Source: Candidatus Falkowbacteria bacterium
GTDB lineage: Bacteria; Patescibacteriota; Patescibacteriia; Patescibacteriales; UBA12465
Length of the DNA: 64,000 nt
Direction: 5' to 3'
Assembly (NCBI GenBank): GCA_026396805.1
Contig: JAPLVZ010000016.1
Coordinates: forward strand, 8,122 to 72,121
Positions within the stretch are counted from its first letter, which is position 1. Every line of letters begins with the position of its first letter. Under the pieces are notes generated by a model. It saw nothing but the letters and a program-made list of their open reading frames with translations, searched no databases and was not told the origin of the DNA. This document shows positions 1,041 to 32,833 of this stretch, in pieces. The translations under genes and the position numbers were made by a program.

Positions 1041-1086
1041 AATGTTTTTTATTAATTTTGAAAAAAATTTTCTCTTAAATCTTTAA

Positions 1087-2529
1087 CTAAACTCTGGGAA
1101 AAAGAATCTCGCCCTTCTTAACTTGCGGCGCCAGAAACTGTTCTTGAATTTTAATCGCCGCCGCCGGGATAAACGGTTCCAAGAGATAAGCGCTGGTTAA
1201 GATAACGGCCGCTAAAGGTTTTAAGGCCGCGGCTATCTCTTTCTTGTCCGTCATTTTCCAGGGCGCTTGACGGCTGATAATTTCATTGCAATCTTTAAGT
1301 TTAGTCCAAATTATCTGTAAAGCTTCATTAAAACGATAGCTCGACATGCTCGCTTCAAAATCCCGAACCGTCTCCTTAATATCCGCGTCCTGCGGATTAA
1401 TTTTCAAATCGGTCTTGATCTCATTCTTTTCCAGTAAGTTAGAAACGCGCGCCGCCAAATTTCCCAGGCCGTTGGCCAGGTCGGCGTTATAGCGCTCCTT
1501 AAATTTCTCCTCCGAGTAATCGCCGTCTTCAAAGGGCGGAATCTCCGCCAAAAGATAATAACGAACCGCGTCCGCGCCGTATTTACCTACCAGTTCAAAA
1601 GGATCGATGCTGTTGCCGAGGCTTTTGCTGATTTTTTGCCCGTTGACCGTCAGAAATCCGAAAACTAAAACTTGGAGAGAATTGGGCAGACCGGCCGATA
1701 AAAGCATCGCCTGCCACATCGCCGCCTGCGGCCGCAAATTATCCTTGCCGCAAACTTGCAGTCCCGGCCAATACTTTTTAAAATCCCCTTTTTCATCCGG
1801 CCAGCCCAGAGTAGAAATATAATTGACTAAAGCGTCGAACCAGACATACATCACTTGGGTCGCGTCGCCCGGAACCGCGAGGCCGTGCGGCATCTTCTCT
1901 TTCAGGCGCGAAATACTGAAATCCTGCAAACCGCCGGTCACGAAAGTTTTTATTTCTTTCAGGCGGCTGGTCGGTAAAACAAAAGACGGATTAGTCTCAT
2001 ATAATTTCAAGAGCGGTTCCCGGTATTTGGAAAAACGGAAAAAATAATTCTCTTCCTCAATAATTTCCAGTTCCCGATTAAGGTCGAGCGGACAGCGGCC
2101 GTTTTCTAAATCGGAATCGGTCTTTTCCAGCTCGCAGCCGACGCAATATTTTATCTTGTATGATTTTTTATAAATGTCGCCGGCGGCGGCGCATCTTTTC
2201 CAGAAGGCTTGAGCGGCGGCGGCATGGCCCTCGTCAGTCGTCCGGATGAACTTATCATAAGTCAGGTTCAATTTTTCTTTTAAAGGCCGGAACTTCGCCG
2301 AATACTCATCGCAGTAAGCCTGGATATCCATCCCCAGTTCCTGGGCTTTCTGATAAATTTTCAAGCCATGCTCGTCCGTGCCGGTATTAAAAAAAACCCG
2401 GCTCCCGCGCTGGCGCTTATAACGGGCGATAACGTCCGCCTTGATGATTTCCGCCGCGAAACCGATATGCGGTTCGGAATTGATATAAGGCAAAGTGGTG
2501 GTGATGTAAAAATGTTTGGAGTCTGGCAT
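1087..2529 (-). CDS. metG: methionyl-tRNA synthetase
   Basis: Class I motifs are present: PHIGF (HIGH-like) and KISKS (KMSKS). There is a CxxC...C zinc knuckle, and the N-terminus reads YITTTLPYINSEPHIG. Confidence 0.95.
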   Translation of the reverse strand: MPDSKHFYITTTLPYINSEPHIGFAAEIIKADVIARYKRQRGSRVFFNTGTDEHGLKIYQKAQELGMDIQAYCDEYSAKFRPLKEKLNLTYDKFIRTTDEGHAAAAQAFWKRCAAAGDIYKKSYKIKYCVGCELEKTDSDLENGRCPLDLNRELEIIEEENYFFRFSKYREPLLKLYETNPSFVLPTSRLKEIKTFVTGGLQDFSISRLKEKMPHGLAVPGDATQVMYVWFDALVNYISTLGWPDEKGDFKKYWPGLQVCGKDNLRPQAAMWQAMLLSAGLPNSLQVLVFGFLTVNGQKISKSLGNSIDPFELVGKYGADAVRYYLLAEIPPFEDGDYSEEKFKERYNADLANGLGNLAARVSNLLEKNEIKTDLKINPQDADIKETVRDFEASMSSYRFNEALQIIWTKLKDCNEIISRQAPWKMTDKKEIAAALKPLAAVILTSAYLLEPFIPAAAIKIQEQFLAPQVKKGEILFPRV

Positions 2530-2566: not shown

Positions 2567-3271
2567 TTAACTGTCTTTTTGTTTTTTATTTATCAGGACG
2601 ACGAACTCTCCTTTTAAACTATGCGGGTCGGACCGCAGTTCTTCTAAAACTTTTTCCGGGGACCCGCTATAAAAACTTTCAAATAATTTAGTAAGTTCCC
2701 TGGCCACCTTAACTTCCGCCGGAATCTTTAATTCCGCGCTCATTTTAATCAGTTCTTCCAACAGTTTTATAATCCGGTGTTTAGATTCATAGACGACAGC
2801 CGGATATTCGCTTTTAAAAATCGCTTTGAGCATCGTCTGCCGGCCTTTCTTGTGCGGTAAAAATCCTAAAAATAAAAACCGGTCAAAGCCGACGCCGGCG
2901 ATAGAAATCGCCGCCGTTAAGGCGGACACTCCGGGAACGCTTTCAATTTTAACGGCGTCTCCCAGTTCTTCCCGAACCGCGGTGACGAGCTTACTGCCCG
3001 GATCCGACAGACCCGGCGTGCCGGCGTCACTTACGAGCGCCAAGTTCTTACCCTCTTTTAACAAAGCAATAATTTTATCAGTTTTTAAATCGCCGGAATG
3101 CTGATGATAAGATAGGGTCGGCGTAACTATCCGGTAATGATCCAATAATCTTTTGGTGATGCGCGTGTCCTCGCATAAAACAAAATCAGACTCTTTCAGC
3201 GTCCGCTCGGCGCGGTGAGTCAGATCTTTAAGGTTTCCTATCGGCGTGGCGACTATCCTTAAAATTCCCAT
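2567..3271 (-). CDS. rsmI: 16S rRNA (cytidine1402-2'-O)-methyltransferase RsmI
   Basis: VATPIGNLKDLTHRA...LCEDTR...LVSDAGTPGLSDPG is the tetrapyrrole-methylase fold signature of RsmI. Confidence 0.9.
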   Translation of the reverse strand: MGILRIVATPIGNLKDLTHRAERTLKESDFVLCEDTRITKRLLDHYRIVTPTLSYHQHSGDLKTDKIIALLKEGKNLALVSDAGTPGLSDPGSKLVTAVREELGDAVKIESVPGVSALTAAISIAGVGFDRFLFLGFLPHKKGRQTMLKAIFKSEYPAVVYESKHRIIKLLEELIKMSAELKIPAEVKVARELTKLFESFYSGSPEKVLEELRSDPHSLKGEFVVLINKKQKDS

Positions 3272-3276
3272 AATTA

Positions 3277-5001
3277 TTACATATTATCACGGCGCTCCCG
3301 AACATATTTAGTCCAGTCTTCCATTATTTCCACCAAGACTTTGAAAGGCGCTTCAATGATAAAATCGAACAAGAAGATAAAAACATTGATCTTGGCGAAC
3401 TCGCCCGATAACCAGCGTCCGACCAGAATTATCGGCATATAGAATAAATCCAAGAGGAAGGTGAAGAGATTTTCGCGGCGCTCCACGATTATCAGTTCTT
3501 TAACGCCTTTAGTCGTCAGGACGCTGAAGAAACTGACGAAAGCCAAGAAGAATAAAAAGATAATGATGCTGACCCAATTGAAATTTATCTTGTCTAAAGC
3601 CCAGATAACGACGAAGACCGAGAAACAAAAAGAGGCGGCGTAAATAAGGTGAAAAATCCCGTTTTTGAGCCAATTGCGGTGAAAATGGCGGCGCAGCATG
3701 ATCGGCTGCTTTTTTCCGCTGCCGGCAAAGGCGATTTCCTTGATGCCGCTGACGATTTTATCGGTATTATTATCTTGAGGCGTCCGCGTCAAAAAAACGA
3801 TAAAAAATAAAAGAGCGGCCGGGAAAGCGATATTAATCGCCAGAGAAATCGGGTTAAGCGGTTCATTGAAAAATTTTATCGCCGGAGCTTCTATTAAGAT
3901 GACAAAAATCGATTTCGTCAAAAAGATATAAATGATGCCCCTTAAGGCCGCTCGCCATAATCTTGACTTGGCTTTAAGGTATTTTTTATTGCAAACCTTG
4001 CGGATCAAGGCGACAAAACTTTTTTCGCCTTTCTGCAGTTCGCTGTAAACCTTGGCCGGATCGCTGTCAATAGTTTCGGACAGGATTGAAAAATATAAAG
4101 CATAAACCCGAACGATCTTATCCAACTGCTTGATGAGCGGGTGCGCGAGTTGAGCGTTAATCTTATCGCGCAAGGACAGGACGTGGCTGGCGATGGCCTC
4201 TATTTTCGCGTCCTCCGCCCCGGATAATTCCTCTTGAGAAGAAATGCCGAGCCATTCGGGATTATAATATTTAAACAGGACAAAACCGAGCATGTCCGCG
4301 TCAAACTTTAAGAAAGTGCGGTCGATGCTTAAATAGATCTGGATTTCCAAATCGGCTTCATAAGGCAGGTCGGCCGGTAATTTGATATTTTTTTGCAGGA
4401 CGGAAAAAAGATTGTCGACGATAGTCTGCTTGACCGGATTAGGCGTCAGGTTCTCTTCTATTTCGCAAGCGGCCAGATTTAAGAGCCAATGGATAAGATT
4501 ATTTTTTTCCCCGATCAAATCTTTGGCTTTATTGATATCCGTTTTCAGATTAAGCTCGATATTAATCTTGGCCGCGATCTTATTTTTCAGCCGGATATAT
4601 TTTTCCAATAAGCCGGCGATCTCGGAAATTTTCGTTTCCGGAATCGTATTATTTGACAAATAACTGCCGCGAATAAGTTCCACGAGCAGATGATTGGCAA
4701 TCTGCGGACCGTCGGTTTCCAGGACTACGCCTTCAATGACGATTTGGCGGCGCAAGATGCGAGCGATCGCGTTTTTACGCAAGAGGTGCTCTTCTTCGTA
4801 ATCAACCGCGTTCCGGACTTTTTCATAAAAAAAAGCGACCCGAGAAATAAGCGTGGAAACTTTAATCTTAGGAATATCTTCATCGATCTCTTCCTTTTTA
4901 TTTTTTTCGCTGTAAATAATCTGGAAGAGCTTCTTGGCGTCGTCACTGATTTCTACCGGGTGGTCATCTTCGCTATGTTTAGCTAAATTTGGACTAACCA
5001 T
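3277..5001 (-). CDS. hypothetical protein: ~330-aa helical soluble N-terminal part plus C-terminal multi-pass membrane domain
   Basis: 574-aa ORF with ATG start and host-like composition. The C-terminal third has several hydrophobic helices. I recognise no family. Confidence 0.6.
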   Translation of the reverse strand: MVSPNLAKHSEDDHPVEISDDAKKLFQIIYSEKNKKEEIDEDIPKIKVSTLISRVAFFYEKVRNAVDYEEEHLLRKNAIARILRRQIVIEGVVLETDGPQIANHLLVELIRGSYLSNNTIPETKISEIAGLLEKYIRLKNKIAAKINIELNLKTDINKAKDLIGEKNNLIHWLLNLAACEIEENLTPNPVKQTIVDNLFSVLQKNIKLPADLPYEADLEIQIYLSIDRTFLKFDADMLGFVLFKYYNPEWLGISSQEELSGAEDAKIEAIASHVLSLRDKINAQLAHPLIKQLDKIVRVYALYFSILSETIDSDPAKVYSELQKGEKSFVALIRKVCNKKYLKAKSRLWRAALRGIIYIFLTKSIFVILIEAPAIKFFNEPLNPISLAINIAFPAALLFFIVFLTRTPQDNNTDKIVSGIKEIAFAGSGKKQPIMLRRHFHRNWLKNGIFHLIYAASFCFSVFVVIWALDKINFNWVSIIIFLFFLAFVSFFSVLTTKGVKELIIVERRENLFTFLLDLFYMPIILVGRWLSGEFAKINVFIFLFDFIIEAPFKVLVEIMEDWTKYVRERRDNM

Positions 5002-5057
5002 AAAAAAATTAAGAATTAATAGTTCTTGCTGTTATTCTATATTATTTACCCGTAAAA

Positions 5058-5073
5058 AGCAATAAAAAGACCG
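5058..5073. repeat. left copy of a perfect 16-bp direct repeat AGCAATAAAAAGACCG
   Basis: Identical 16-mer at 5058-5073 and 11515-11530, read directly from the sequence. Confidence 0.95.
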
Positions 5074-5076
5074 AAT

Positions 5077-5118
5077 AAAAAAATCCTGCACACCACCCTC
5101 GAAGGGGCAGGCGCAGGA
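5077..5118 (-). terminator. rho-independent terminator downstream of the nuclease gene
   Basis: On the minus strand TCCTGC...GCAGGA forms an outer stem with an inner CCCT/AGGG stem, followed by T7 (A7 on the plus strand at 5077-5083). Confidence 0.65.
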
Positions 5119-5223
5119 GACTTTATGCTTATATATTACACTGCGGGTTATTTTGTGCCAATAAAAATTCGATTAATTAAAAATGTTTAATATTAAACTA
5201 ATTTTATCACTCTAGGCGACCAC

Positions 5224-5925
5224 CTATCTTGTTGTATCACCGTTACAAGTATCAGCGCCCCATAATCCTTTGCCGTCCTCTCTGGCATTTTCCTCTGCCT
5301 CTTTAAATTCTATTTGATATTTATAAGGATTACTTTGATAAGTATATTCGTGCGCATAACCCTCCGCTATCATTAATCGGTTAAAAGAAGTGCCGTCTTC
5401 TAAAAAAACGTATCTTAGTAAACGATTATATTTATCTCTTTCTCCCTGAGAACTATCAGCCTCTAGTTTTACCTTTTTCCCATTTAATATTTCTTTAGCT
5501 TTATTACTAGCTTCTTTAGCAAAACATTGAACCGGCTTACGTGGATCAACTATTTCGGGAGTATCTATACCAATAAGTCTCAAGGTTTCTTTTTTACCAT
5601 TTATGTTTACTTCAATAGTATCTCCGTCAATAACTCGGCTTACTAAAAATATTCCTTCCATAGTAATTTGTGGACTTGTCTCAACCAGAATAGGCCTGGA
5701 AATTGGGGCTTCATTTCTGGCTTGTATGTCTGTCGATTCTCTGGATTCTGCGCGAGCCTTTTTGATTTCAATCGTCGTGGGTTTGTTATGACAATGATAA
5801 TCACTTGTCTTTTTATTAGTATGACAACCATTGGCATCAGTTCTCCCGGAATGAGCAAAAACGCTTAATGGAAAAATAAGCAATAAAACAAAAGTTAAAA
5901 GTGTTAATTTAAAATTTTTAAACAT
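5224..5925 (-). CDS. secreted thermonuclease (staphylococcal-nuclease fold) with N-terminal YHYH-like Cys/His motif
   Basis: Signal peptide MFKNFKLTLLTFVLLLIFPLSVFA. HSGRTDANGCH...DYHCH motif. SNase core GDTIEV...LRLIGIDTPE...RLLRYVF...EGYA. Confidence 0.85.
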   Translation of the reverse strand: MFKNFKLTLLTFVLLLIFPLSVFAHSGRTDANGCHTNKKTSDYHCHNKPTTIEIKKARAESRESTDIQARNEAPISRPILVETSPQITMEGIFLVSRVIDGDTIEVNINGKKETLRLIGIDTPEIVDPRKPVQCFAKEASNKAKEILNGKKVKLEADSSQGERDKYNRLLRYVFLEDGTSFNRLMIAEGYAHEYTYQSNPYKYQIEFKEAEENAREDGKGLWGADTCNGDTTR

Positions 5926-5932
5926 TTTATCT

Positions 5933-6154
5933 CTATGGCATCACCGTCAGTCCAATAACTAACGATGTGCCAATAATTATACTGGCTATTATAATCGCTA
6001 CTCCTAGATTACCTTTTTTAATTTCTTCCCATTCATCAATCGGCGTAATCCACGAGAACACTTTAACTAAAATACTTAAAGCAAACGCCATCGAGATTGC
6101 TCCCGTTAACGCCCAACCAAAAGTAATAAGATACTGTTCGAGAATGTGTAACAT
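5933..6154 (-). CDS. DUF350-family small membrane protein
   Basis: 73 aa with two TM helices flanking ITPIDEWEEIKKGNLGVAI, the pattern I associate with DUF350. Confidence 0.65.
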   Translation of the reverse strand: MLHILEQYLITFGWALTGAISMAFALSILVKVFSWITPIDEWEEIKKGNLGVAIIIASIIIGTSLVIGLTVMP

Positions 6155-6180
6155 AAGTTTTAGTATATTTTTTAATTATT

Positions 6181-9100
6181 TTATTCCCAACTTCCCACGG
6201 TAATTTTACGAATATTTATGTCGCTGATACCTAATGACAGGTAGCGCATGATTTGATAAGCCGCCTCTCCGTTGGCTAGATAATATCTCTTACCATCTAC
6301 CGGATTTATATACCAGGCTTCGCCCCGGCTCTCAATTTGAATGACAATACGACCCTTCAGGCGATTTATAAGTGAAGTTGAATAAACTAGCTTCCCGGTT
6401 CCTAGCGGGTTGGTATTATTTTTTAAGACTTCATCTCCATCATTAACCCCGTCACCATCTGTGTCGGCTAATATAGAATTAGTGCCTAACCCTTCTTCCA
6501 GTTTATCTGGCAGGCCGTCCTTATCGGTATCAGTCATACTAAAACGTGATTCTTGACCGACAGGGATTTTATTTAAATCTGCGTTTTTAATACCTAAACC
6601 GAATTTACGAAGAGCACTATAGGCGCTGTCTCCGTCCGCTAAATAATAACGTTTCAGAGAAATTAAATCGAGATACCAGGCCTGGCCAAAGCGTTCAATC
6701 TGCAGTAATATCCGACCGGCAAGACGTTGTATTAACTTTGTGTCTATTTTAGTAGTTAAGGCTCTCTCTTCGGCTGTTACATCGGTAATCTTTACGCCTA
6801 ATACTTTCTTTTCTGCAACTATGGGCTCAGTCGAAACGGTTTGGTTAAGGATAGGATCAGTTGAAGTAGCTAACTGGCAGACTCTAGTTGCCTCTAATTG
6901 TTGGGGGGTAGTAAGGGTACAAGCGTCTGGAGTCTTGGTTAAAACTGTACGGGATTGTTGACTCCCCATACAGGTTTGCCAAGGAGAATACGTTACGGTT
7001 GAACAATAGGTGATATTACCACTTCCACCGCCACCACCACCGCCACCACCGCCACCACCGCCGCCAGAGAACACCGGAGCGGCAATAGCAACAGTCACAA
7101 CATATGATTGAGTTGAGTTATCAGCCGCAGTGACTGAATATGTAACTGGATTAGTAAAATTTTGAGCCACTCCACTTAGCGGGCTGACCGATGCCCCGGT
7201 GATGACGATAGTTGGGATAAGAGCGATAACGGCTGTGCCAGAAGGAACGGTTACCGAGATTGTTTTAGCAGATTCATTAATAACTCCCGTAACACTTGGA
7301 CTTGTAAAATTAAATGAGATAATTGTTTTTGCTGGATTGAGTGCAACAGTAACTGTATAAGTTACCGCAGTTATTCCATCCTGAGCTGTTACTAATAATG
7401 TGTCGCCTGTTACAACTGGGTCAGATACATCGGCGATATTCCATGTCTGGTGAGCTTCACTTTTAGTTAAGGCAGCTAAAAAGTTGGCCTTGGAAGTACC
7501 AAACGGAATATTGGTGATAATTTCAGAAGACGTCCCACTCGAAGTCACTGCATAAACAGCCGACGTGATTGTGGCCGTAGTACTTGGCGCTGCGACGGCT
7601 ACCGTCACCACGTAAGCCTGGGTTGAACCATCGGCCGCAGTGATTGTGTACGTAATTGGATTAGTAAAGTTTTGAGCTACTCCACTTAATGGGCTAACCG
7701 ATGACCCAGAAATGGCGATAGTCGGTATAAGAGAGGTTAAATTAGCGGCATAAGGTACAGTTACAGAAATTGTCTTGGCAGTTTCGTCAATAATGCCTTC
7801 GCCTTCCGGAAAGCTAAAAGCAGTAATTGCTTTAGCGGTGTTAGGCGCGACAACTACTGTCACCGTGTAAGCCTGGGTTGAACCATCGGCCGCAGTGATT
7901 GTGTACGTAATTGGATTAGTAAAGTTTTGAGCTACTCCACTTAATGGGCTAACCGATGGCCCAGAAATGGCGATAGTCGGTATAAGAGAGGTTAAATTAG
8001 TGGCATAAGGTACAGTTACAGAAATTGTCTTGGCAGTTTCATCAATAACACCCGTAGCACTTTGATCTACAAAATCAAATGAAGTAACGGCTTTAGCGGT
8101 GTTAGGCGCAACAGTAACTGTGACAGTATAGGTCTGGGTTGAACTATCAGCGGCTGTGACGGTATAGGTTACCGGATCAGTGAAGTCTTGAATCGCCCCG
8201 CTTAATGGGCTAACCGAAGCTCCAGCAGACGCCACAATAGTCGGAATAACAGCGGTAATATTGGTATCGAAGGGAACTGTTACGGCAATTGTATGAGCGA
8301 TTTCATTAATTGTAGTTGTGCCTACTTGAGAAGGAATAGTAAAAGCGGTAATTGCTTTGGCAGGACTAAGGGCAGTAGTTATTGTATAAGCTACTGTCGT
8401 TACTCCGTCCTGAGCGGTAACTACTAAAGTATTTCCAGTTACTACCGGGTCTGATATCCCATCGCTATTCCAGGTTTGATCAACTTGACCCTTGGTTAAA
8501 GCGGCTAAAAAGGCGGTTTTTGATGTGCTAGAAGGAACGCCAATAATAGTTTCCGAAGATGTTCCGCTAGCACTGACCGTGTATGTTCCGGATGTGATTG
8601 TGGCAACGGCGCTTGCTGGCAATTTAATTACAGTTAATGTAAATACTTTTGTATCAGTGACATCACCCTTGGTGATTGTCGCCGTCATTGTGCTGGTGGC
8701 GTTCCCGCTAGCGAAAGTTGGCCTATTAATTGTTTGTCCGTCGCCAGAAACAATGTTTATATTGCTTGATTCCCAAGTAATTGTTGAACTGCTGGCTAAT
8801 CCGGTTGCTGGCAACGGATTTGTTAGAGCCACGGTAATATTTGATAGGTCAGCATTTTCACCCTTAATTAAATTATCTACTAAAGCGGCCTTATCGGCGG
8901 CAACGGCGGAAATATCTGGATTAGCGGCAACGTTTACTGTCACGACATAAGCTTGGGTTGAAGAGTCGGCGGCGGTGACAGTATAGGTGGTTGTAGCGGT
9001 AAAATTATTAGCTACCTCGCTCAATGGGCTAACCGATGCTCCGGTAATAACGATGGTTGGGATAAGAGCCGTCACATTAGTACCGTAAGGAACAGTGACG

Positions 9101-11265
9101 GCGATTGTATGAGCAACTTCATCAATTGTAGTTGTGCCTACTTGAGAAGGGATAGTAAATGCGGTAATTGCTTTAGCTGGGTTAGCTGCTTGAAGAGCCT
9201 TTTGTGCATTAATTCTTTTTCCGAAAACTGTCTTTCTAGATAAAGACGCTAAACTATCGCCTGAAGTTAAAATTATATTTTTTACTTGTACTGATGTTAA
9301 GCTAGGATTATATCCTTCAATCAATGCCGCCAAACCTGCAACGTGTGGGGCGGCCATTGAAGTTCCGCGATAATAATTGTATTTTTCGTCTGAACCATCA
9401 GTATATTTAGTAATTTTTATATTATCAATTGTGCATCCAAGATTATTATCAATAGACTCATTGGTTATCCATTCAAAACTAAAATTAAAATCACTAGCGA
9501 GATGGTCGGAAATATCCTCTGTATAATTTTTATAATATCCTACATGGCCTGAATCAATCCAATAAGATCCTCCGTCTAACCAAATACTGTCCTCATTATA
9601 TTTTGCAGAATTGCTCCATGTCGAATTCGAATAGTGTTGAGTTAATATATAGTCATCAAAAACAAAAGTATCTGGAGTATCGCACCAAATAGTGAAGCTT
9701 AAAGCTGCTCCTTTAATATTACTATTTGAAAGATCTATAGAATTTTTTGCCATTATATATGTAAACGCATTATTATCGTAAGGAGTAAAGGGATCCGAGT
9801 AAGCAACCCTAGACGATCCATCATTTAAGACAGCCCAGTTATCCGTTGTGACACCACCAGACACAATATCATAACTACTTCCCTCAAAATTTTCTGAAAA
9901 ATAAATTGAATCAGCTATCGTACTATAAATATTTACGCCCGGAGCACCCACGTCTACAGAAGTTGCACCATAATTAGAAAATGAGGCTAAATTATCATTC
10001 TGGTCAGTAGCCGCAACGGAAATAATATTGTCTAAATCGTAGTCTGAAGGATATTGGTGAATACTTTCATTACTGTCACCGACTGCGTCGGGTCCACCAT
10101 TGCCAGCCGCAGCAACAAAGATTCCTCCAGCCGCTTTAAAACGATTAATTGCGTCATATTCTAGTTGAGAAAAATCAGGGCCACCAAAACTAGCATTAAT
10201 TACTTTTGCTCCATTTTGAATAGCGAAATCAATAGCTTTTATTTCTGAAGGGATGTCAAAACCGAATTTAATAGCCATTATTTTTGCATTTGGTGCTAAT
10301 CCAATGACGCCTTTATTATTATTTTTTACAGCCGCAATAGTTCCTGCGATATGGGTGCCGTGAGAAAAATATTCATTCTGAGTAGTCGGTAAAGGAATTT
10401 TGTCACCGCTACCTTCAAAATCATAACCATGATTGCATCCACCCAAATAAGCACCATTTTCATTCTTGCAATTTGTACCATCCCACATATTACTAACTAA
10501 ATCAGGATGATTATAAGCAACCCCGCTATCAATAATTGCCACTATAGTAGAAGTATTTATGCCTTCATTCATAAGCCATGCTTCAGGCGCATCAATATCA
10601 GCATTAATAGTTCCTGTAACCGTATTAACAGTCTGACCAGTATTATCTAGTCCCCATAGTTTTTCTCTGTCAGTGTCATTAGTATTAATAGTACTGGGAT
10701 AGCGTTTATAATTTGGCTCTACATATTCAACGTTTGGATCATTTTTCAATTCGGCTATTTTCTGCTCTACCGTTTTGGTGTCTTTAATTTTTAAAACCTG
10801 TACATTGTTTATCCTTAAATCTTCTTTTTTCTCCAACGATTTGGAATTAATAAAATTTAAAGCAGTGGTTCTCCCGGAAGAAGTGTTCAAATTTATCTTA
10901 TTATTTTTATATTTAACCAAAATTTCACCAGGGACATAATTCAATTTTTCCTGTTTACTATTTTTCTGTAATCCTTTTTTTAAATCCAATTTATTATCTT
11001 GCGTTTTAGGAGTGGGAGACTGCTCCTCTAATTTTTTTGTTTTTAATGCTTCCAATTCTTCATTGCTTAAATTTTTATTTTGTTCAAGTAGAACATTGTT
11101 ATCAGAAATAGCCCCTGTACTAGAAGGTGCTACCTGAGTTCTAACTTTTTTAAAAGCAATACTACTTTTTTCGTACGCTAAAACAGGTAAACTAAAATTA
11201 CCTAGAACAACAGAAACAATTAAACAAATTGAAAAAAATAAACTAAATTTTTTAAATTTTTTCAT
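6181..11265 (-). CDS. giant secreted subtilisin-like (S8) serine protease with Ig-like repeat array, Gly14 linker, TSP3-like Ca-binding motifs and two C-terminal ~57-aa repeat modules
   Basis: The D/H/S triad is in subtilase order: AIIDSGV, HGTHIAGT, GTSMAAPHVAG. The start is moved to ATG 11265 (MKKFKKFSLFF... signal peptide) because the track start at 11289 is TTG. There are five ~85-aa repeats of the form AKAITAF...TYTVTAADSSTQ.YVVTV. Confidence 0.9.
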   Translation of the reverse strand: MKKFKKFSLFFSICLIVSVVLGNFSLPVLAYEKSSIAFKKVRTQVAPSSTGAISDNNVLLEQNKNLSNEELEALKTKKLEEQSPTPKTQDNKLDLKKGLQKNSKQEKLNYVPGEILVKYKNNKINLNTSSGRTTALNFINSKSLEKKEDLRINNVQVLKIKDTKTVEQKIAELKNDPNVEYVEPNYKRYPSTINTNDTDREKLWGLDNTGQTVNTVTGTINADIDAPEAWLMNEGINTSTIVAIIDSGVAYNHPDLVSNMWDGTNCKNENGAYLGGCNHGYDFEGSGDKIPLPTTQNEYFSHGTHIAGTIAAVKNNNKGVIGLAPNAKIMAIKFGFDIPSEIKAIDFAIQNGAKVINASFGGPDFSQLEYDAINRFKAAGGIFVAAAGNGGPDAVGDSNESIHQYPSDYDLDNIISVAATDQNDNLASFSNYGATSVDVGAPGVNIYSTIADSIYFSENFEGSSYDIVSGGVTTDNWAVLNDGSSRVAYSDPFTPYDNNAFTYIMAKNSIDLSNSNIKGAALSFTIWCDTPDTFVFDDYILTQHYSNSTWSNSAKYNEDSIWLDGGSYWIDSGHVGYYKNYTEDISDHLASDFNFSFEWITNESIDNNLGCTIDNIKITKYTDGSDEKYNYYRGTSMAAPHVAGLAALIEGYNPSLTSVQVKNIILTSGDSLASLSRKTVFGKRINAQKALQAANPAKAITAFTIPSQVGTTTIDEVAHTIAVTVPYGTNVTALIPTIVITGASVSPLSEVANNFTATTTYTVTAADSSTQAYVVTVNVAANPDISAVAADKAALVDNLIKGENADLSNITVALTNPLPATGLASSSTITWESSNINIVSGDGQTINRPTFASGNATSTMTATITKGDVTDTKVFTLTVIKLPASAVATITSGTYTVSASGTSSETIIGVPSSTSKTAFLAALTKGQVDQTWNSDGISDPVVTGNTLVVTAQDGVTTVAYTITTALSPAKAITAFTIPSQVGTTTINEIAHTIAVTVPFDTNITAVIPTIVASAGASVSPLSGAIQDFTDPVTYTVTAADSSTQTYTVTVTVAPNTAKAVTSFDFVDQSATGVIDETAKTISVTVPYATNLTSLIPTIAISGPSVSPLSGVAQNFTNPITYTITAADGSTQAYTVTVVVAPNTAKAITAFSFPEGEGIIDETAKTISVTVPYAANLTSLIPTIAISGSSVSPLSGVAQNFTNPITYTITAADGSTQAYVVTVAVAAPSTTATITSAVYAVTSSGTSSEIITNIPFGTSKANFLAALTKSEAHQTWNIADVSDPVVTGDTLLVTAQDGITAVTYTVTVALNPAKTIISFNFTSPSVTGVINESAKTISVTVPSGTAVIALIPTIVITGASVSPLSGVAQNFTNPVTYSVTAADNSTQSYVVTVAIAAPVFSGGGGGGGGGGGGGGSGNITYCSTVTYSPWQTCMGSQQSRTVLTKTPDACTLTTPQQLEATRVCQLATSTDPILNQTVSTEPIVAEKKVLGVKITDVTAEERALTTKIDTKLIQRLAGRILLQIERFGQAWYLDLISLKRYYLADGDSAYSALRKFGLGIKNADLNKIPVGQESRFSMTDTDKDGLPDKLEEGLGTNSILADTDGDGVNDGDEVLKNNTNPLGTGKLVYSTSLINRLKGRIVIQIESRGEAWYINPVDGKRYYLANGEAAYQIMRYLSLGISDINIRKITVGSWE
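7024..7065 (-). repeat. 14 consecutive glycine codons (mixed GGT/GGC/GGA) encoding a Gly14 linker
   Basis: Plus strand reads tcc acc gcc acc acc acc gcc acc acc gcc acc acc gcc gcc. The protein reads FSGGGGGGGGGGGGGGSGN. Confidence 0.95.
7612..8048 (-). repeat. near-identical 255-bp-period tandem duplication inside the protease gene (two 182-nt tracts, 3 mismatches)
   Basis: In a hand alignment, 7612-7793 versus 7867-8048 differ only at three positions (A/G, C/T, G/A). Each unit encodes one ~85-aa Ig-like repeat. Confidence 0.9.
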
Positions 11266-11286
11266 AATATTTTCGATGAGGAAGAG

Positions 11287-11378
11287 CAAAAAAGGTCTCC
11301 CGACACGATTAACACACCCTTTCGGATATGTGCCACGAAAGCTAAAAACCGGTCAGAAGACCATTTTTACTTTCGTGG
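11287..11378 (-). promoter_or_regulatory. structured 5' leader of the protease gene: 46-nt near-perfect hairpin, GAAA-capped hairpin, short hairpin + U6
   Basis: Region 11333-11378 pairs CCACGAAAG/CTTTCGTGG, TAAAAA/TTTTTA and GGTC/GACC. Region 11312-11332 forms an 8-bp stem with a GAAA loop only on the minus-strand RNA, because it relies on G.U pairs. GUC-GGGA-GAC plus U6 lies at 11287-11307. Confidence 0.5.
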
Positions 11379-11481
11379 ACTTTTTACCATGCTCCGCTAA
11401 TATACAGCGAAGTTTAGGCTTATACTTTTTATTAAGTTATGTAATTATTACACAACTAAACTTTATTTTTACTTTAAATAT

Positions 11482-11510
11482 ACTTTATCAATAATTTAAG
11501 TATTTGTCAA
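11482..11510 (-). promoter_or_regulatory. sigma70-like promoter for the protease cassette (TTGACA-17-TAAAGT)
   Basis: On the minus strand, TTGACA lies at 11510..11505, followed by a 17-bp spacer and TAAAGT at 11487..11482. Confidence 0.5.
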
Positions 11511-11514
11511 CCTT

Positions 11515-11530
11515 AGCAATAAAAAGACCG
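11515..11530. repeat. right copy of the 16-bp direct repeat AGCAATAAAAAGACCG
   Basis: Identical to 5058-5073. Here it overlaps the hairpin AGACCG-CTTC-CGGTCT. Confidence 0.95.
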
Positions 11531-11540
11531 CTTCCGGTCT
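11517..11540 (-). terminator. orphan terminator-like hairpin (minus-strand orientation) with no upstream minus-strand gene
   Basis: AGACCG CTTC CGGTCT at 11525-11540. A T-tract follows only on the minus strand (TTTTTATTGC). Confidence 0.45.
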
Positions 11541-11576
11541 CTTGGCCGGCCGACTCCGAACCGTCTTGACCGCCCC

Positions 11577-11605
11577 TTGACATTGAGAGCGGGATTTTGT
11601 ATTAT
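11577..11605 (+). promoter_or_regulatory. sigma70-like promoter upstream of secE (TTGACA-17-TATTAT)
   Basis: TTGACA at 11577-11582, a 17-nt spacer, then TATTAT at 11600-11605. It lies about 60 nt upstream of the secE ATG. Confidence 0.6.
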
Positions 11606-11663
11606 TTTAGTAGATTAAAAGTAGCCTCTCCCGGGCCTTTTTTTAAATAGAGATATTAATTTT

Positions 11664-11849
11664 ATGAGCAAAATAACCACTTATTTTAAAGAGTCCGTCG
11701 CCGAGTTGAAAAAAGTGACTTGGCCGACAAAAAAAGAAACCTATAACTATACTCTACTGGTCATCGGCATCAGCTTGGGGGTGGCGATATTTTTAGGATT
11801 TTTGGATTATATTTTTACTCAAGGCTTCCAGGCGCTGTTAACCAGATAA
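11664..11849 (+). CDS. secE: preprotein translocase subunit SecE
   Basis: 61 aa. KESVAELKKVTWPTKKE followed by a single TM helix. Lies in the conserved position before nusG. Confidence 0.85.
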   Translation: MSKITTYFKESVAELKKVTWPTKKETYNYTLLVIGISLGVAIFLGFLDYIFTQGFQALLTR

Positions 11850-11901
11850 AATTAATTTTTTAGTAAATTATTGTTTTTAAATTTATTGACAAGCGAGCGA
11901 G

Positions 11902-11953: not shown

Positions 11954-12499
11954 ATGGCCAAGCAACTTTTAAATCAAGGCCGCCGCTGGTATGTCATCCA
12001 TACTTATTCCGGCTACGAAGAAAACGTCGCCCAGAATCTGAAACAGAGAGTCGAATCCTTGGATATGGAAGATAAGATTTTCAACATCCTCATCCCGACC
12101 GAAAAAAAAATCAAGATTAAAAACGGCAAACGCAAGGTGACGGAAGAAAAAATCTTCCCGGGCTATATTCTCGTGGAAATGGAAGTGACCGACGAGTCCT
12201 GGTATATTGTCAGAAACACTCCGAACGTCACCGGCTTTATCGGCACCGGCACCATCCCGACCCCCATCAGCGACGCCGAAGTCAAAGCGCTTCAGAAAAG
12301 AATGGGCGTGGAAGAACCGAAATTCCAGATTGACGTCGTTATCGGCACTCCGGTTAAAATCAACGAAGGTCCGTTTAAAAATATGGAGGGCAAAATTACC
12401 GCGATTGACGAAGCTAAAGGCAAAGTCAAAGTATCGGTCTCGATGTTCGGACGCGAAACGCCGGTGGAATTGGATTTCTTGCAGATTAAAAAATCCTAG
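11954..12499 (+). CDS. nusG: transcription termination/antitermination factor NusG
   Basis: RWYVIHTYSGYEENV... NGN domain plus a C-terminal KOW (GPFKNMEGKI). The start is moved to ATG 11954, because the track start at 11906 lies inside the palindrome and adds a non-homologous extension. Confidence 0.92.
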   Translation: MAKQLLNQGRRWYVIHTYSGYEENVAQNLKQRVESLDMEDKIFNILIPTEKKIKIKNGKRKVTEEKIFPGYILVEMEVTDESWYIVRNTPNVTGFIGTGTIPTPISDAEVKALQKRMGVEEPKFQIDVVIGTPVKINEGPFKNMEGKITAIDEAKGKVKVSVSMFGRETPVELDFLQIKKS

Positions 12500-14945: not shown

Positions 14946-14973
14946 ATCTTTATTTAAAATAATTAAATTAATC

Positions 14974-15021
14974 TTGACATAAATATTATTTTATATTAAT
15001 ATTGTGTGAATGTCAATTATA
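14974..15021. promoter_or_regulatory. overlapping divergent promoters (plus: TTGACA-17-TAATAT; minus: TTGACA-17-TAAAAT) plus AATGTCA[A/G]TTAT direct repeat
   Basis: Plus-strand -35 at 14974-79 and -10 at 14997-15002. Minus-strand -35 at 15016..15011 and -10 at 14993..14988. The repeat lies at about 15008-15019 and 15026-15037. The region is AT-rich, so false positives are possible. Confidence 0.45.
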
Positions 15022-15082
15022 GGACAATGTCAGTTATTTAACAACTTAATTATATTAGTAGCAACCACCAAAAAAATAAATC

Positions 15083-15496
15083 ATGGAAAAAGAAAAAAAT
15101 TTAACAATTAAAATCTTGCTCTGCCTGCAAGCTATTTTCTTAACGATTAAAAAAATATTCTCGCTGCAAGTCGTTGCCTTAACGGTAATGTTTGGCATCT
15201 GCTTACTGGCCGGTATACTCCAGGGTCTGGTGGGAAATGTCGTTATCTCCTTATTTTACGGAGTATACGCCCGATGTGTCCTCTTCGATAAAAAAGGGAC
15301 AGTCCTTAAAAAAAGACTGCAGTTCTTTTCTTTCCTGGTCGTTCTGGAAGCGGCGACTTGGTTATGCTTAACGGTATTCTCCGCCGATGCCGAACTTTTC
15401 GGTTCGACCTTTATCATTATCGGCCTAATCGTTAGCACTATCTGCTTCCTTATCGGCTGGATTTTTGATAAATTTATGGATTGGTGTTGGGGATGA
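15083..15496 (+). CDS. small 4-TM membrane protein, paralog A (unknown family)
   Basis: 137 aa. Clear paralogy to the next gene: GLVGNVVISL...KKG...FFSFLVVLEAATWLCL...IIIGL...GWI. Confidence 0.7.
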   Translation: MEKEKNLTIKILLCLQAIFLTIKKIFSLQVVALTVMFGICLLAGILQGLVGNVVISLFYGVYARCVLFDKKGTVLKKRLQFFSFLVVLEAATWLCLTVFSADAELFGSTFIIIGLIVSTICFLIGWIFDKFMDWCWG

Positions 15497-15527
15497 TAGT
15501 AACCATTAAAAAAAATAACTTTAAGTC

Positions 15528-15890
15528 ATGGAAAAAGTAAGAATAAAAAAACAAGTAATCAAGAAGTACGCCATTATTTTAGCGATAATGTTCATCGTCA
15601 GTTTGCTGTTTAGCGTGCTCTTGGGTCTGATAGGAAACACCGTTATTTCCTTAATTTGCGGAATAGTTGCCAGCCATATCGCCAGCAATGAAAAAGGTAC
15701 GGCCTCTAAAAAAATACTGCCGCTCTTTTCCTTTCTGGCCGTTCTTGAAGCGGCAACTTTCTTATGCCTATGGGTATTTCCCTTAGGCGCCGGGTCCTTT
15801 GACTCGACTCTGGTCATCATCGGCCTATCCTTTAGTACATTTCTGTTCATTACCGGCTGGATTATCGGGGAAACTTGGCCATTTTCTTAA
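15528..15890 (+). CDS. small 4-TM membrane protein, paralog B (unknown family)
   Basis: 120 aa: GLIGNTVISL...EKG...LFSFLAVLEAATFLCL...VIIGL...GWI. Confidence 0.7.
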   Translation: MEKVRIKKQVIKKYAIILAIMFIVSLLFSVLLGLIGNTVISLICGIVASHIASNEKGTASKKILPLFSFLAVLEAATFLCLWVFPLGAGSFDSTLVIIGLSFSTFLFITGWIIGETWPFS

Positions 15891-15924
15891 AGGGGGTCGA
15901 AGTTTCTTAGGTTCTTTATAATTT

Positions 15925-15958
15925 AAAAGGCCACCCATTAATAAGGCGGCCTTTTCTA
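15925..15958. terminator. bidirectional terminator between paralog B (+) and nifS (-)
   Basis: AAGGCCACC / GGCGGCCTT form a 9-bp stem with one mismatch, flanked by an A-run and a T-run. Confidence 0.6.
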
Positions 15959-15975
15959 TTTTGGCTAGCCATAAA

Positions 15976-31333: not shown

Positions 31334-32833
31334 TTATTTTTGATAAAAATCTTTCACCGCCTGATTGAAGTCGCTCACTTTTTGATTGTAATCATTAATC
31401 GCCGCCTGATAAGCGCTTAAATCGCTGTTATATTTATTGATTAAATCATTATATGTGCCTACTAAACTATTATACTGGGGAATCTGTCCATTATTATAAT
31501 AGGTGCCCATCTGGGACTTAAGCGAACTGATCTCCGCTTCCTGAATTTTTAAGGCGGCGTCTTGAGCGCTAAGAAGAGGATCTTGAGTGTTTAAATAATC
31601 CTTGGCCGCTTTTAAAGACGCGACTTTAGCGCGAGTTGCGGCCACACCGTAGTAAATCTGACCGCTCGTCTTTTGATAAATTTCCATGTTTCCCAGATGA
31701 GCGGCATCGAAGAGACCGGTAAATTCTTCCGAACCGGTTTGCGCTTGCCCGGAACTTAAATCGGACGGAACCACGCCGAGGGGAAAATAATTCGTCGTTT
31801 CACCATAGCAATAACCGGAACCGGCGAGCGATTGGTCGATCGGACAGGCGATGCCGACCGCGCTATGATTCGCCGTCGGAAAATCCAGAATCGCCGCCCC
31901 GTAACCTAATTTACGTAGTAGCGCTACGGCCAAAAAAGTTTTGTCGGAACAGACGCCGCGATCAAGATATAAAGTTTCGTAAGGATAATAAGGATCGTTA
32001 TTGCGATTATTTTCGGCAAGCAGTTTGGCGTTATCATAAGGAATAAATTGCGCGAGCGCGAGCGTGAATTCCAGAGTTTCATCGGCGGTCCAATTATTAT
32101 TTAAGGCGATCGCCTTTAATTTAAAGATCAGGTCGTTAAGTGAAGTGTCACCGGATTTGACGTTAAAAAATAGGCCATAGAAAGCTTCGCGTAAAGTCGC
32201 GTCCGAAGCCGCGCCGGAATAGGAATAAACTTTAATGGCCGACTTATAAGAATTATAAAGCGCGGACGAAAAATTCTGATTAACCGTGTAACCGCTATTT
32301 TTATATTTAAAAGCGAAGGAAAGCGGCGCGTCTAAGCTGACGCTCTCCGCCGGAACGCTGCCGCTCACCGAGGCGATTTTTATCTTGGCCAAATCCGCGT
32401 TCGTGATTCCCAGGCCCAGAGCCCGCATAACATTAAACGCGTCCGCCGGCCGGCCCAAATAATATAGTTTTAAATTTGTCGGCGAAAGATAATAAGCCTG
32501 GCCTTTGTCTTGGACCTGAAGCAGAATGCGGCCGGATAAGCGAAGCGGGGCGCTAATCTTAAATTTCGCCAAATCGGCGTTAGAAACCCCGAGCCCGAGC
32601 GCGCGCATGATACCAAACGCGTCATCGGGACGGCCCAGATAATAACGCGAACTGTTAACCGGATTAACATACCAGGCCTCGCCATGAGACTCAACTTGCA
32701 GGAGAATGCGACCGTTCAAGTTAGTCGCGGCTGAAGCCGGAGCGGGAAATATGCCGGAGCTTAAAAAAATAGCGCCCGTCAAAACCAAAACGGAAATTAT
32801 TCTTAAATATTTTGACGAAGCGGTTATTTTCAT
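31334..32833 (-). CDS. secreted protein: two N-terminal ~57-aa GRILLQV/EAWY/RYYLG repeat modules, possible transglutaminase-like Cys-His core, C-terminal coiled coil
   Basis: Signal peptide ending PASA-A. Repeats at about aa 37-153. GVCSDKTFLAVALLRKLGY...NHSAVG. The tail is Asn/Tyr/Gln-rich heptad-like. Confidence 0.8.
   Translation of the reverse strand: MKITASSKYLRIISVLVLTGAIFLSSGIFPAPASAATNLNGRILLQVESHGEAWYVNPVNSSRYYLGRPDDAFGIMRALGLGVSNADLAKFKISAPLRLSGRILLQVQDKGQAYYLSPTNLKLYYLGRPADAFNVMRALGLGITNADLAKIKIASVSGSVPAESVSLDAPLSFAFKYKNSGYTVNQNFSSALYNSYKSAIKVYSYSGAASDATLREAFYGLFFNVKSGDTSLNDLIFKLKAIALNNNWTADETLEFTLALAQFIPYDNAKLLAENNRNNDPYYPYETLYLDRGVCSDKTFLAVALLRKLGYGAAILDFPTANHSAVGIACPIDQSLAGSGYCYGETTNYFPLGVVPSDLSSGQAQTGSEEFTGLFDAAHLGNMEIYQKTSGQIYYGVAATRAKVASLKAAKDYLNTQDPLLSAQDAALKIQEAEISSLKSQMGTYYNNGQIPQYNSLVGTYNDLINKYNSDLSAYQAAINDYNQKVSDFNQAVKDFYQK

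Follow-up and report, generated by a model that had tools for sequence, protein, structure and literature searches.

Patescibacteria rely on other cells and their genomes are tiny; the gain of accessory functions in this group is poorly documented. In a 64,000-nt stretch of a Candidatus Falkowbacteria genome (contig JAPLVZ010000016.1; hereafter the window), a short block of genes lies between two perfect copies of a 16-nt sequence, which raises the question of whether this block was inserted as a unit and, if so, where it came from and how it was joined to the chromosome. The initial annotation of this DNA, made from the letters alone, had proposed an insertion, and the checks set for it beforehand (empty sites in relatives, rarity of the 16-mer, a composition break, no recombinase-like domain in the neighbouring protein) all came out in its favour. 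In our best reading of the whole, to which we give a probability of about 85%, the locus carries a 6,457-bp horizontally acquired block with a 16-bp target duplication and a three-gene cargo. The case is a clean and fairly ordinary recent gene acquisition; what it offers is one gain seen at base-pair resolution, with sister genomes that preserve the empty site.

Boundaries, empty sites and composition

The 16-mer AGCAATAAAAAGACCG occurs twice in the window, also when two mismatches are permitted, and three genes, all on the minus strand, lie between its copies as first annotated (Table 1). The size of the insert given above counts one repeat copy. The block sits in a spacer of ~210 bp that has the divergent secE-nusG operon on one side and, on the other, a conserved gene for a 574-aa membrane protein. 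On the minus strand, the left junction of the filled site reads CAGGATTTTTTTATT-CGGTCTTTTTATTGCT-TTTTACGGG; the right junction reads ACCGGAAG, the 16-mer and AAGGTTGACA, and the insert ends abut the duplicated target sequence directly. The duplicated 16-bp stretch is made up of the 3' arm of a hairpin (AGACCG-CTTC-CGGTCT), a T-tract and the opening 5 nt of a -35-like block of the 574-aa gene. The hairpin is complete at the right copy and its 5' arm is missing at the left copy, just as had been described. It had also been called part of a pre-existing terminator; the hairpin structure is indeed present, but the empty site has no upstream gene on the hairpin's strand to terminate.

Table 1. Features of the locus (positions in the window)
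Feature	Position	Strand	Basis or remark
Left flank: gene for 574-aa membrane protein (core, outside the element)	3277..5001	-	same locus in 13/13 relatives
Promoter-like block of the 574-aa gene (TTGCTT, 17 nt, TAGAAT)	5034..5062	-	putative promoter
Left 16-bp direct repeat	5058..5073		minus strand reads CGGTCTTTTTATTGCT; aligned to the sole copy in empty-site relatives
Foreign insert between repeats	5074..11514	-	missing from 12/13 related species; composition shift
Predicted intrinsic terminator of the cassette (14-bp-class stem, then T7)	5077..5118	-	fold and sequence
Gene for 233-aa secreted thermonuclease	5224..5925	-	signal peptide, YHYH motif, SNase domain
Gene for 73-aa DUF350 membrane protein	5933..6154	-	Pfam PF03994, 42.7 bits
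Gene for 1,702-aa secreted S8 subtilase	6181..11289	-	domain matches and translation
LOOT RNA (Rfam RF03000)	11291..11420	-	covers most of the ~185-nt 5' leader of the protease gene
Putative cassette promoter (TTGACA, 17 nt, TAAAGT, TG extension)	11482..11510	-	consensus scan, 10/12 matches
Right 16-bp direct repeat	11515..11530		minus-strand 3' arm and T-tract of the hairpin
Target-site hairpin	11525..11540		original spacer; also in L012 and L077
Right flank: secE, then nusG, rplK, rplA	11664..11849	+	promoter-like site 11577-11605

The neighbouring 574-aa protein, which was to be searched for a recombinase-like domain, has none and matched no family in Pfam, NCBIfam or PADLOC. The promoter-like block of its gene is conserved with its spacing in all 13 relatives, and the TTGCT segment of the 16-mer belongs to the -35-like part. 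As the left repeat contains these 5 nt, the duplication left the block intact; with the start of the block included in the duplication, both flanking genes would have retained their promoters.

In 12 of 13 related species secE directly faces the 574-aa gene across a gap of 158-217 bp, and none of the SNase, DUF350 and S8 genes was found in the loci of these 12 relatives (2-22 kb each). The 12 insert-free relatives span 55-95% amino acid identity, and the more distant ones lack the hairpin too. The predicted empty site is present exactly in the two closest genomes (L012 and L077, ~90% nucleotide identity to the window), as AGACCGGAAA-CGGTCTTTTTATTGCT-TTTTACGGGTAAATAATATAG, that is, the hairpin, a single 16-mer and the leader of the 574-aa gene; blastn alignments of L077 (window positions 2576-5073 and 11515-11894) overlap by exactly the 16-mer. 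The 16-mer is an infrequent word, with two occurrences in 64 kb; L012, L014 and L077 have it once each, at the orthologous position, and this ancestral target sequence is preserved unchanged in both copies. In our reading the insertion postdates the split from the closest sequenced relative (~90% nucleotide identity).

An exact 16-nt repeat by itself is no rarity, as the window holds five other exact pairs of at least 16 nt when Ig repeats are excluded (four dispersed, one tandem). The 16-mer is significant because it sits exactly at the indel boundaries that the empty sites set independently. Other gene-sized indels also separate close relatives of this lineage. Three of those between the window and L012 were examined: two have readable boundaries and show just 8-10-nt AT-rich matches, and the boundary of the third is hidden by N in L012. 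A direct repeat around an unrelated insert of L015 in the same spacer did not stand out from chance, since 44 of 500 shuffles reached its score.

As the source is uncultured and the repeats of the giant gene interrupt short-read assembly, with contigs ending at 8011 and 6538, we considered whether a short repeat had led an assembler to link foreign DNA to the chromosome. For this strain, at least 10 sequencing runs are represented among the Logan assemblies, which are at least 99.96% identical to the window, and their independently assembled k=31 contigs cross the left junction (e.g. L007, L001 and L083) and the right junction (L009-L011 and L085) at 99.96-100% identity. Paths in a k=31 graph cannot be joined by a 16-nt repeat. 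On account of these junction-spanning contigs and the k=31 argument a chimera was rejected, and we regard its probability as negligible.

The low GC content first noted for the block holds for the insert as a whole (38.9% vs 44.9% in the remainder), but it is non-uniform, with ~45% in the Ig-repeat part of the protease gene. A clean compositional break is limited to third codon positions and tetranucleotide content. There, the break at the repeats that had been proposed from hand counts is distinct: GC3 is 0.23-0.37 in the cassette vs 0.52 ± 0.04 elsewhere (SNase 0.235, protease 0.296 and DUF350 0.365; mean 0.518 ± 0.044 and minimum 0.397 for the 53 other genes), and in tetranucleotide content each of the 12 most extreme windows falls within or across the insert (z = 5.4-9.1). 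Contigs that bear homologous modules have 33-35.5% GC. The block therefore has both marks of a horizontally acquired islet, a composition unlike the host genome and absence from the orthologous site in close relatives.

The same observations bear on the reverse scenario, in which the cassette was ancestral at this locus and the relatives lost it by precise deletion between the repeats. A 16-bp direct repeat could permit such excision, and two Logan contigs of this strain (L002 and L008) start precisely at the outer border of the left repeat. However, an independent precise loss would be needed in each of the 12 insert-free relatives, the more distant of which do not have even the hairpin, and the GC3 and tetranucleotide content of the cassette are far beyond the host range. 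Ancestral presence followed by loss was rejected as very improbable, the cassette being seen here in one recent clade only. As a separate observation, the starts of L002 and L008 would fit an empty allele in the same samples.

Cargo and predicted expression signals

The largest gene of the cassette encodes an S8 subtilase that begins with a signal peptide, a fervidolysin-type prodomain and an S8 domain with D/H/S motifs (163.7 bits against PF00082; IIDSG, HGTHIAG and GTSMAAPHVAG in the translation), followed by DUF5018/aBig_2 Ig-like repeats, a poly-Gly linker and a C-terminal repeat domain with TSP3-like Asp-rich repeats. Its start is a TTG at 11289 with GGGAG ~7 nt upstream; an ATG at 11265 is the alternative. 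The nearest full-length homologue is 58-62% identical across about half its length, and over its C-terminal 277 aa the subtilase shares 77.6% identity with a giant protein of L025. The DUF350 protein is 90% identical to its L025 homologue and was found in exact form solely in the same context as here; the pairing of DUF350 and SNase genes occurs also in L027 and L078. The predicted nuclease matches Pfam PF00565 (90.7 bits, cut-off 21) and NCBIfam YHYH_alt (47.9 bits), with DTPE and Arg motifs visible in the translation, and its nearest non-self homologues are 72% identical. Judging from these domains, the cassette likely serves scavenging, plausibly via breakdown of extracellular protein and nucleic acids.

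The sequences of the predicted expression signals at the two ends of the cassette were confirmed as annotated. The putative promoter has TTGACA at 11510-11505 and, after 17 nt, TAAAGT at 11487-11482, and lies 4 nt from the right repeat. At the other end, the T7 tract (5083-5077) that follows the terminator hairpin (5118-5084; -24.5 kcal/mol, z = -3.4) stops 3 nt short of the left repeat. A LOOT RNA between promoter and protease gene, overlooked in the initial annotation, scored 53.6 bits (gathering threshold 46.4; E = 2.8e-7 over the whole window) and folds with an MFE of -49.6 kcal/mol (z = -5.8); the match spans model positions 1-121, with a poor fit of the 3' terminal hairpin. The cassette would thus be a self-contained transcription unit with a sigma-70-type promoter, a LOOT leader, three genes and a strong terminator, so that the unit gained may have been an operon ready for expression, encoding a surface protease and a secreted nuclease.

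The Rfam scan of related loci, which covered all except L019 and L023, detected LOOT also in L078 only, and none was found upstream of the homologous S8 genes P0121 and P0126. Rfam lists the motif as an sRNA type, whereas here and in L078 it stands directly 5' of, and co-directional with, a hydrolase gene, so its placement looks like that of a 5' leader. An orphan RNA gains a defined genomic setting, as an apparent 5' leader of hydrolase genes. The cassette proteins match the Pfam and NCBIfam models of the SNase/Nuc and giant S8 families of Patescibacteria well above threshold; the S8-DUF350-SNase operon with a LOOT leader, on the other hand, was seen here only.

Related modules and the search for a donor

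Homologues of SNase and S8 number in the thousands, many of them annotated in Patescibacteria MAGs. The closest counterpart of the arrangement is in L025, where the C-terminus of the giant protein, DUF350 and SNase form a module at 74% nucleotide identity (78%, 90% and 72% at the amino acid level) that adjoins AAA_25, HTH_17 and tyrosine-integrase genes. An SNase homologue is also found in L079, a contig that has two integrases and a primase, and others are present on IMG/VR contigs. By these comparisons, the C-terminus/DUF350/nuclease module circulates among low-GC Patescibacteria, in one case on a contig with a tyrosine integrase. The locus shows that such presumed scavenging modules pass between CPR lineages and can travel on integrase-bearing elements. 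To our knowledge, no conjugative elements have been described in CPR bacteria.

The direct donor was sought in several ways. Searches with the cassette proteins gave no near-identical copy elsewhere, blastn with the whole cassette had zero matches among PLSDB plasmids and INPHARED phages, and no second cassette copy appeared in any collection searched. In the JGI metagenome scan, the sole match to the 16-mer with either downstream flank was an empty-site contig of an L012-like species, and neither a second insertion site nor the circular junction (TTTTTTTATT-CGGTCTTTTTATTGCT-AAGGTTGACA) was found there. We considered 47 IMG/VR matches to the 16-mer as attP candidates and discarded them as chance matches, the flanks being unrelated in all; no attP-like match was obtained from IMG/VR or JGI contigs. 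By exact-match search, L025 contains neither the 16-mer nor its 11-nt T-tract/TTGCT part TTTTTATTGCT, and its ends showed nothing convincing in the way of att-like repeats or tRNA genes. As to an enzyme, tblastn and phmmer with three integrase queries gave no homologue in the window, and the earlier statement that the cassette has no integrase or transposase holds, with only the S8, DUF350 and SNase genes inside.

Possible modes of integration

As to how the block was joined to the chromosome, we tentatively consider most likely, though at less than even odds, that a circular intermediate integrated at an att-like core of 16 bp, the recombinase having acted in trans or having since been lost. 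The circle would hold one copy of the 16-mer and enter by a Campbell-type, att-core crossover with the same sequence on the chromosome; the enzyme responsible would be encoded outside the cassette, and the product would be a CIME-like islet between attL- and attR-like repeats. The repeat length of 16 bp falls inside the range of att core identities. Against this mode, the target is an intergenic hairpin and neither a tRNA gene nor a conserved gene end, and a target-site duplication accounts equally well for the perfect identity of the repeats.

CIMEs are elements that have lost their integration genes and kept attL and attR (PMC6323972, PMC5704250). The cassette resembles them in that it carries no integrase, excisionase or transfer genes of its own, in that its flanking direct repeats correspond to one attB-like copy in the empty sites of L012, L014 and L077, and in that a related module lies on the integrase-bearing contig L025. 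It differs in its target, in its CPR host, in having been reduced to a single transcription unit whose signals stand 3-4 nt from the repeats, and in that searches of L025 for the core, of IMG/VR and JGI contigs for an attP and of the window for an integrase found none.

Integration of phage lambda offers a similar comparison. The common core of lambda is 15 bp, and the T-rich identity segment of 16 bp that flanks our insert likewise has one copy in the empty site. The cassette has no Int or Xis; with the repeats 4 nt from the promoter and 3 nt from the terminator, there is no space for lambda-like attP arm-type sites.

A transposition-like event, in which staggered cuts of 16 bp are made, the cassette is joined and the gaps are repaired by an enzyme encoded elsewhere or of a novel type, is in our view less probable than the att-like route. 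It would explain why neither copy differs from the other or from the target in L012, L014 and L077, and why the duplicated stretch is wholly target sequence with the insert ends directly against it, a likeness to transposons and casposons alike. Transposase duplications are usually of 2-14 bp, and those of known DDE families reach 16 bp only in rare cases; casposons make duplications of 14-15 bp and have inverted repeats and Cas1. In contrast, the cassette has no transposase, and no terminal inverted repeats could be detected (local score 20 vs a shuffle mean of 20.2 and a shuffle maximum of 34), and further copies, which a DDE element mobilised in trans would show, did not appear in the collections searched. 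Cas1 and PolB are missing as well, and the duplication length is no more than similar to that of casposons. The two readable indels between the window and L012, of the three examined, also show no comparable repeat. An integron cassette fits no better: promoter, terminator and three genes all belong to the block, which has neither an attC-like site nor IntI.

Alternatively, foreign DNA that was taken up by natural transformation and circularised, and that happened to contain the same terminator-tail 16-mer, could have integrated by Campbell-type recombination over short homology, either recombinase-independent or RecA-dependent. The tail of the cassette terminator (GGATTTTTTTATT) resembles that of the 16-mer (GGTCTTTTTATT), which suggests that such T-rich tails recur; the other gene-sized indels show that islets are gained and lost in this lineage without recognisable mobile-element signatures, and natural competence is known among Patescibacteria. 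However, a chance match of 16/16 between an unrelated low-GC donor and the target is improbable, the other indels have no such repeat, and no donor was found that carries the 16-mer upstream of the cassette promoter. We consider this route conceivable though unlikely, about on a par with transposition.

Whichever route was taken, a 16-bp duplication without a recombinase provides a concrete junction for read data and could reveal a mechanism of integration in this group. Rather doubtful is the idea that the cassette represents an unrecognised minimal mobile unit of Patescibacteria, a recombinase-free plug-in that extends from promoter to terminator. Its enzyme would act in trans on a hairpin and T-tract target, with a 16-bp duplication as the trace; natural populations would still contain filled alongside empty alleles, and LOOT would be a cis-acting leader of hydrolase operons and not an sRNA. 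Candidates for such a trans-acting enzyme would be the integrases of L025-like elements or a nuclease/ligase.

Empty sites in related species and the 16-bp repeat

Scanning the GTDB species representatives with the neighbouring 574-aa membrane protein, we identified 13 related species (55-95% amino acid identity), annotated as Patescibacteria, Parcubacteria or Falkowbacteria MAGs. In 12 of them, secE directly faces the 574-aa gene across a spacer of 158-217 bp, and no homologues of SNase, DUF350 or S8 were found in any of these loci (2-22 kb each). In the closest relative, L012 (95% amino acid and about 90% nucleotide identity), the spacer reads ...CCAAGAGACCGGAAA-CGGTCTTTTTATTGCT-TTTTACGGGTAAATAATATAGAATAACAGC.... 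This order of hairpin, single 16-mer and 574-aa gene leader matches exactly the junction that the initial annotation had predicted for an empty site. L077, a JGI metagenome contig from the same species, agrees: it aligns to window 2576-5073 and 11515-11894, and the overlap of the two alignments is exactly the 16-mer. The 16-mer is present once each, in orthologous position, in L012, L077 and a further related locus, L014. These junctions, together with the exact overlap, indicate that the window carries a 6,457-bp insertion with a 16-bp target duplication. The proposal of an insertion is thus supported by empty sites, alignment overlap and foreign codon usage (see below), and the cassette is a well-resolved genomic islet that was recently inserted by horizontal transfer and has att-like repeats at its ends. 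An ancestral cassette was rejected, as each of the 12 empty-site relatives would have had to lose it precisely and independently, and the foreign codon usage would be left unexplained.

A window-wide search bore out the two reported copies of the 16-mer, AGCAATAAAAAGACCG, and revealed no third copy in the window with up to 2 mismatches. Five other exact repeat pairs of at least 16 nt (four dispersed and one tandem) occur in the window when the internal repeats of the protease are excluded, and taken by itself the 16-bp repeat is not beyond chance; its significance comes from a position that was independently fixed by comparison with relatives. As had been described, the hairpin AGACCG-CTTC-CGGTCT takes one arm and its T-tract from the right copy, and its other arm is absent at the left copy. 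The name "pre-existing terminator" describes structure only, because the empty site has no upstream gene on the hairpin's strand. This hairpin is confined to the window lineage and L012/L077, and the spacer of more distant relatives either is shorter or has different GC-rich sequence. The final five bases of the 16-mer and the following T make up TTGCTT, located 17 nt upstream of TAGAAT/TAnAAT; this block and its spacing, conserved in all 13 relatives, would serve as promoter for the 574-aa gene. Neither this promoter block nor that of secE was disrupted by the duplication. In the secE 5' leader, a short GC stem and the T7 behind it (...GCCTCTCCCGGGCCTTTTTTT...) may form an attenuator-like element; the opposite-strand AAAAAAAGGCC block is conserved in L012 and the related loci L013-L016, and a related AAAAAGAGCC block is present in most more distant relatives.

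At least ten sequencing runs provided Logan assemblies of this strain that were 99.96-100% identical to the window, with contigs among them spanning each junction. An assembly chimera was rejected, since a 16-nt repeat is unable to produce a false join in a k=31 graph and the junctions are spanned; the value of k was checked on the Logan contig L009, whose start lies 30 nt into an internal repeat of 39 nt. Two contigs of this strain from independent Logan assemblies, L002 (SRR20698639) and L008 (ERR15302187), have window 5073, the outer edge of the left repeat, as their first base. This is what a co-occurring empty-site genome would give in a k=31 graph, and is suggestive but not proof of one. 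Such a genome could belong to the same strain or to the L012-like species, whose 31-mers common with the window stop exactly at 5073. Recurrent contig ends were also observed at 6538, 8011 and 2856, and an internal repeat accounts for 8011 only.

Cassette genes and expression signals

Gene calls and domain matches confirmed that exactly three co-directional genes lie between the repeat copies, with gaps of 7 and 26 nt, and the promoter-like site and terminator were located beside the right and left repeats as previously described (see table).

Features of the cassette and its surroundings (window positions)
Feature	Position	Strand	Details
Left 16-bp repeat	5058-5073
Terminator hairpin	5118-5084	-	fold -24.5 kcal/mol, z = -3.4; followed by T7 ending 3 nt from left repeat
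SNase gene	5224-5925	-	233-aa thermonuclease; PF00565, 90.7 bits, plus YHYH motif
DUF350 gene	5933-6154	-	73-aa protein
S8 subtilase gene	6181-11289	-	1,702 aa
LOOT RNA (RF03000)	11291-11420	-	full-length match in cassette leader, 53.6 bits vs gathering score 46.4
Promoter-like site	11510-11482	-	TTGACA-17-TAAAGT plus TG extension, 4 nt from right repeat
Right 16-bp repeat	11515-11530
Target hairpin	11525-11540		AGACCG-CTTC-CGGTCT
secE leader stem and T7	11620-11646	+
C-terminal repeat domain of a second protein	32372-32719	-	inside ORF 31334-32833

In the subtilase, a fervidolysin-type prodomain is accompanied by DUF5018/aBig_2 Ig-like repeats, a poly-Gly linker and a TSP3-like Asp-rich stretch that lies within a C-terminal repeat domain. 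Both subtilase and thermonuclease begin with typical Sec signal peptides, and their catalytic motifs are legible in the translations. Judged from sequence, the cassette, with its promoter, structured leader, secreted Ca-type thermonuclease, giant secreted subtilase and terminator, makes up a self-sufficient unit predicted to break down extracellular protein and nucleic acids. Given what is generally known of the group, a putative role in scavenging would be reasonable for a host-dependent CPR cell. The C-terminal repeat domain recurs in another protein of the window, with 29-46% identity to the C-terminus of the giant protein of contig L025 (described below), and is probably a common surface-anchoring module of this organism.

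One feature overlooked by the initial annotation was the LOOT RNA, which is typed as sRNA in Rfam (RF03000). Its fold in the cassette leader has z = -5.8, and it occupies the 5' leader position of the S8 gene, its 3' end abutting a GGGAG that precedes the TTG start codon by about 7 nt. A stronger match (88.9 bits) was found in L078, a contig with an SNase homologue, at 12280-12396 (-), 53 nt upstream of a NucS_C/PD-(D/E)XK-like gene and 1.4 kb from a tRNA-Lys/DUF350/SNase cluster. Since both LOOT copies are directly upstream of, and co-directional with, a hydrolase gene, this suggests a cis-acting leader. LOOT was absent upstream of two homologous S8 genes.

Composition and origin of the cargo

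The insert was described earlier as AT-rich. Its GC content is indeed lower overall (38.9% vs 44.9% in the rest of the window) but not uniformly so, reaching about 45% in the Ig-repeat region, and the clean break is seen at third codon positions. The GC3 of SNase is 0.235, that of DUF350 0.365 and that of the protease 0.296 (0.230, 0.339 and 0.356 in its three parts), compared with 0.518 ± 0.044 (minimum 0.397) for the 53 other genes. In a tetranucleotide comparison of sliding 2-kb windows, the 12 most deviant were all in or across the insert (z = 5.4-9.1). A low-GC Patescibacteria donor fits, as homologous modules elsewhere are located in contigs of 33-35.5% GC.

Patescibacteria thermonucleases of the cassette type are very common (6,102 matches at E ≤ 1e-10), and the nearest non-self homologues of the cassette SNase are 72% identical. 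The 13.9-kb Logan contig L025 (1-13899) encodes a 1,775-aa giant protein, DUF350 and SNase, followed by DZR, NERD, AAA_25 (RepA-like), HTH_17 (excisionase-like) and a tyrosine integrase. The contig probably represents an integrative element from a Patescibacterium of low GC (35%), and no att sites were definable on it. Its DNA is similar to the window from 7059 to 5234 (74% nucleotide identity), covering the C-terminal 277 aa of the giant protein (78% amino acid identity), DUF350 (90%) and SNase (72%). The two giant proteins are unlike in their N-terminal halves, and the C-terminus/DUF350/nuclease module is thus mobile cargo with exchangeable heads.

The pairing of DUF350 with a nuclease was observed in four independent contexts. 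DUF350-SNase pairs occur in chromosomal-looking contexts in L078, directly past the tRNA-Lys gene, and in another contig, L027. Two integrases, a Toprim primase and a type ISP restriction system accompany an SNase homologue on the contig L079, and three IMG/VR predicted viral contigs (L087-L089) have SNase homologues with 59-69% identity in the catalytic domain. The cassette-type nuclease family is a frequent mobile-element cargo. The full protease has no close relative, its best matches being 58-62% identical over about half its length, and no donor of the cassette was found.

Insertion mechanism and other indels

As noted previously, the cassette genes include no integrase or transposase, and we found no recombinase of any kind among them. 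We also detected no tyrosine recombinase in the 64-kb window and no terminal inverted repeats at the cassette ends. Searches of IMG/VR, JGI metagenomes, plasmids and phages yielded neither another copy of the element nor an attP or circular junction. Att-type integration, in which a 16-bp core on a circular element would recombine with an identical chromosomal core and leave a CIME-like islet (as defined in PMC6323972 and PMC5704250), is tentatively favoured, with a probability of roughly 0.4. The reasons are the link of the module to integrase-bearing elements, a repeat length that suits an att core better than a transposase duplication, and the lack of inverted repeats. On the other hand, no cognate integrase or attP is known and arm-type sites have no room. 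A 16-bp staggered cut with subsequent gap repair would, like att-type integration, explain the perfect target-derived repeat without invoking chance. This model and short-homology integration following DNA uptake are each considered about half as likely as att-type integration.

Of three further indels examined between the window and L012, the two with readable boundaries showed no repeat comparable to the 16-mer, and the third is N-masked in L012. Gene-sized indels between the two are located at window 1050-1097, 14948-15970 and about 17150 and at L012 13955-18460; those with readable boundaries lack flanking repeats longer than 10 nt. In L012, HD, CYTH and three unknown genes occupy 4.5 kb between cvpA and metRS, the window has an extra ~0.9 kb with two small ORFs of unknown family, where L012 is N-masked, and near window 17150 about 0.8 kb is extra in both L012 and L013.

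An unrelated 1.25-kb insert was observed in the same secE/574-aa spacer of the Falkowbacteria MAG locus L015 (830-2285), encoding a 224-aa membrane protein and a 65-aa ORF in opposite orientation. No significant direct repeat flanks it, and its right edge is a few nt at most from the same T-rich block. This spacer appears to be a recurrent, tolerated insertion spot.
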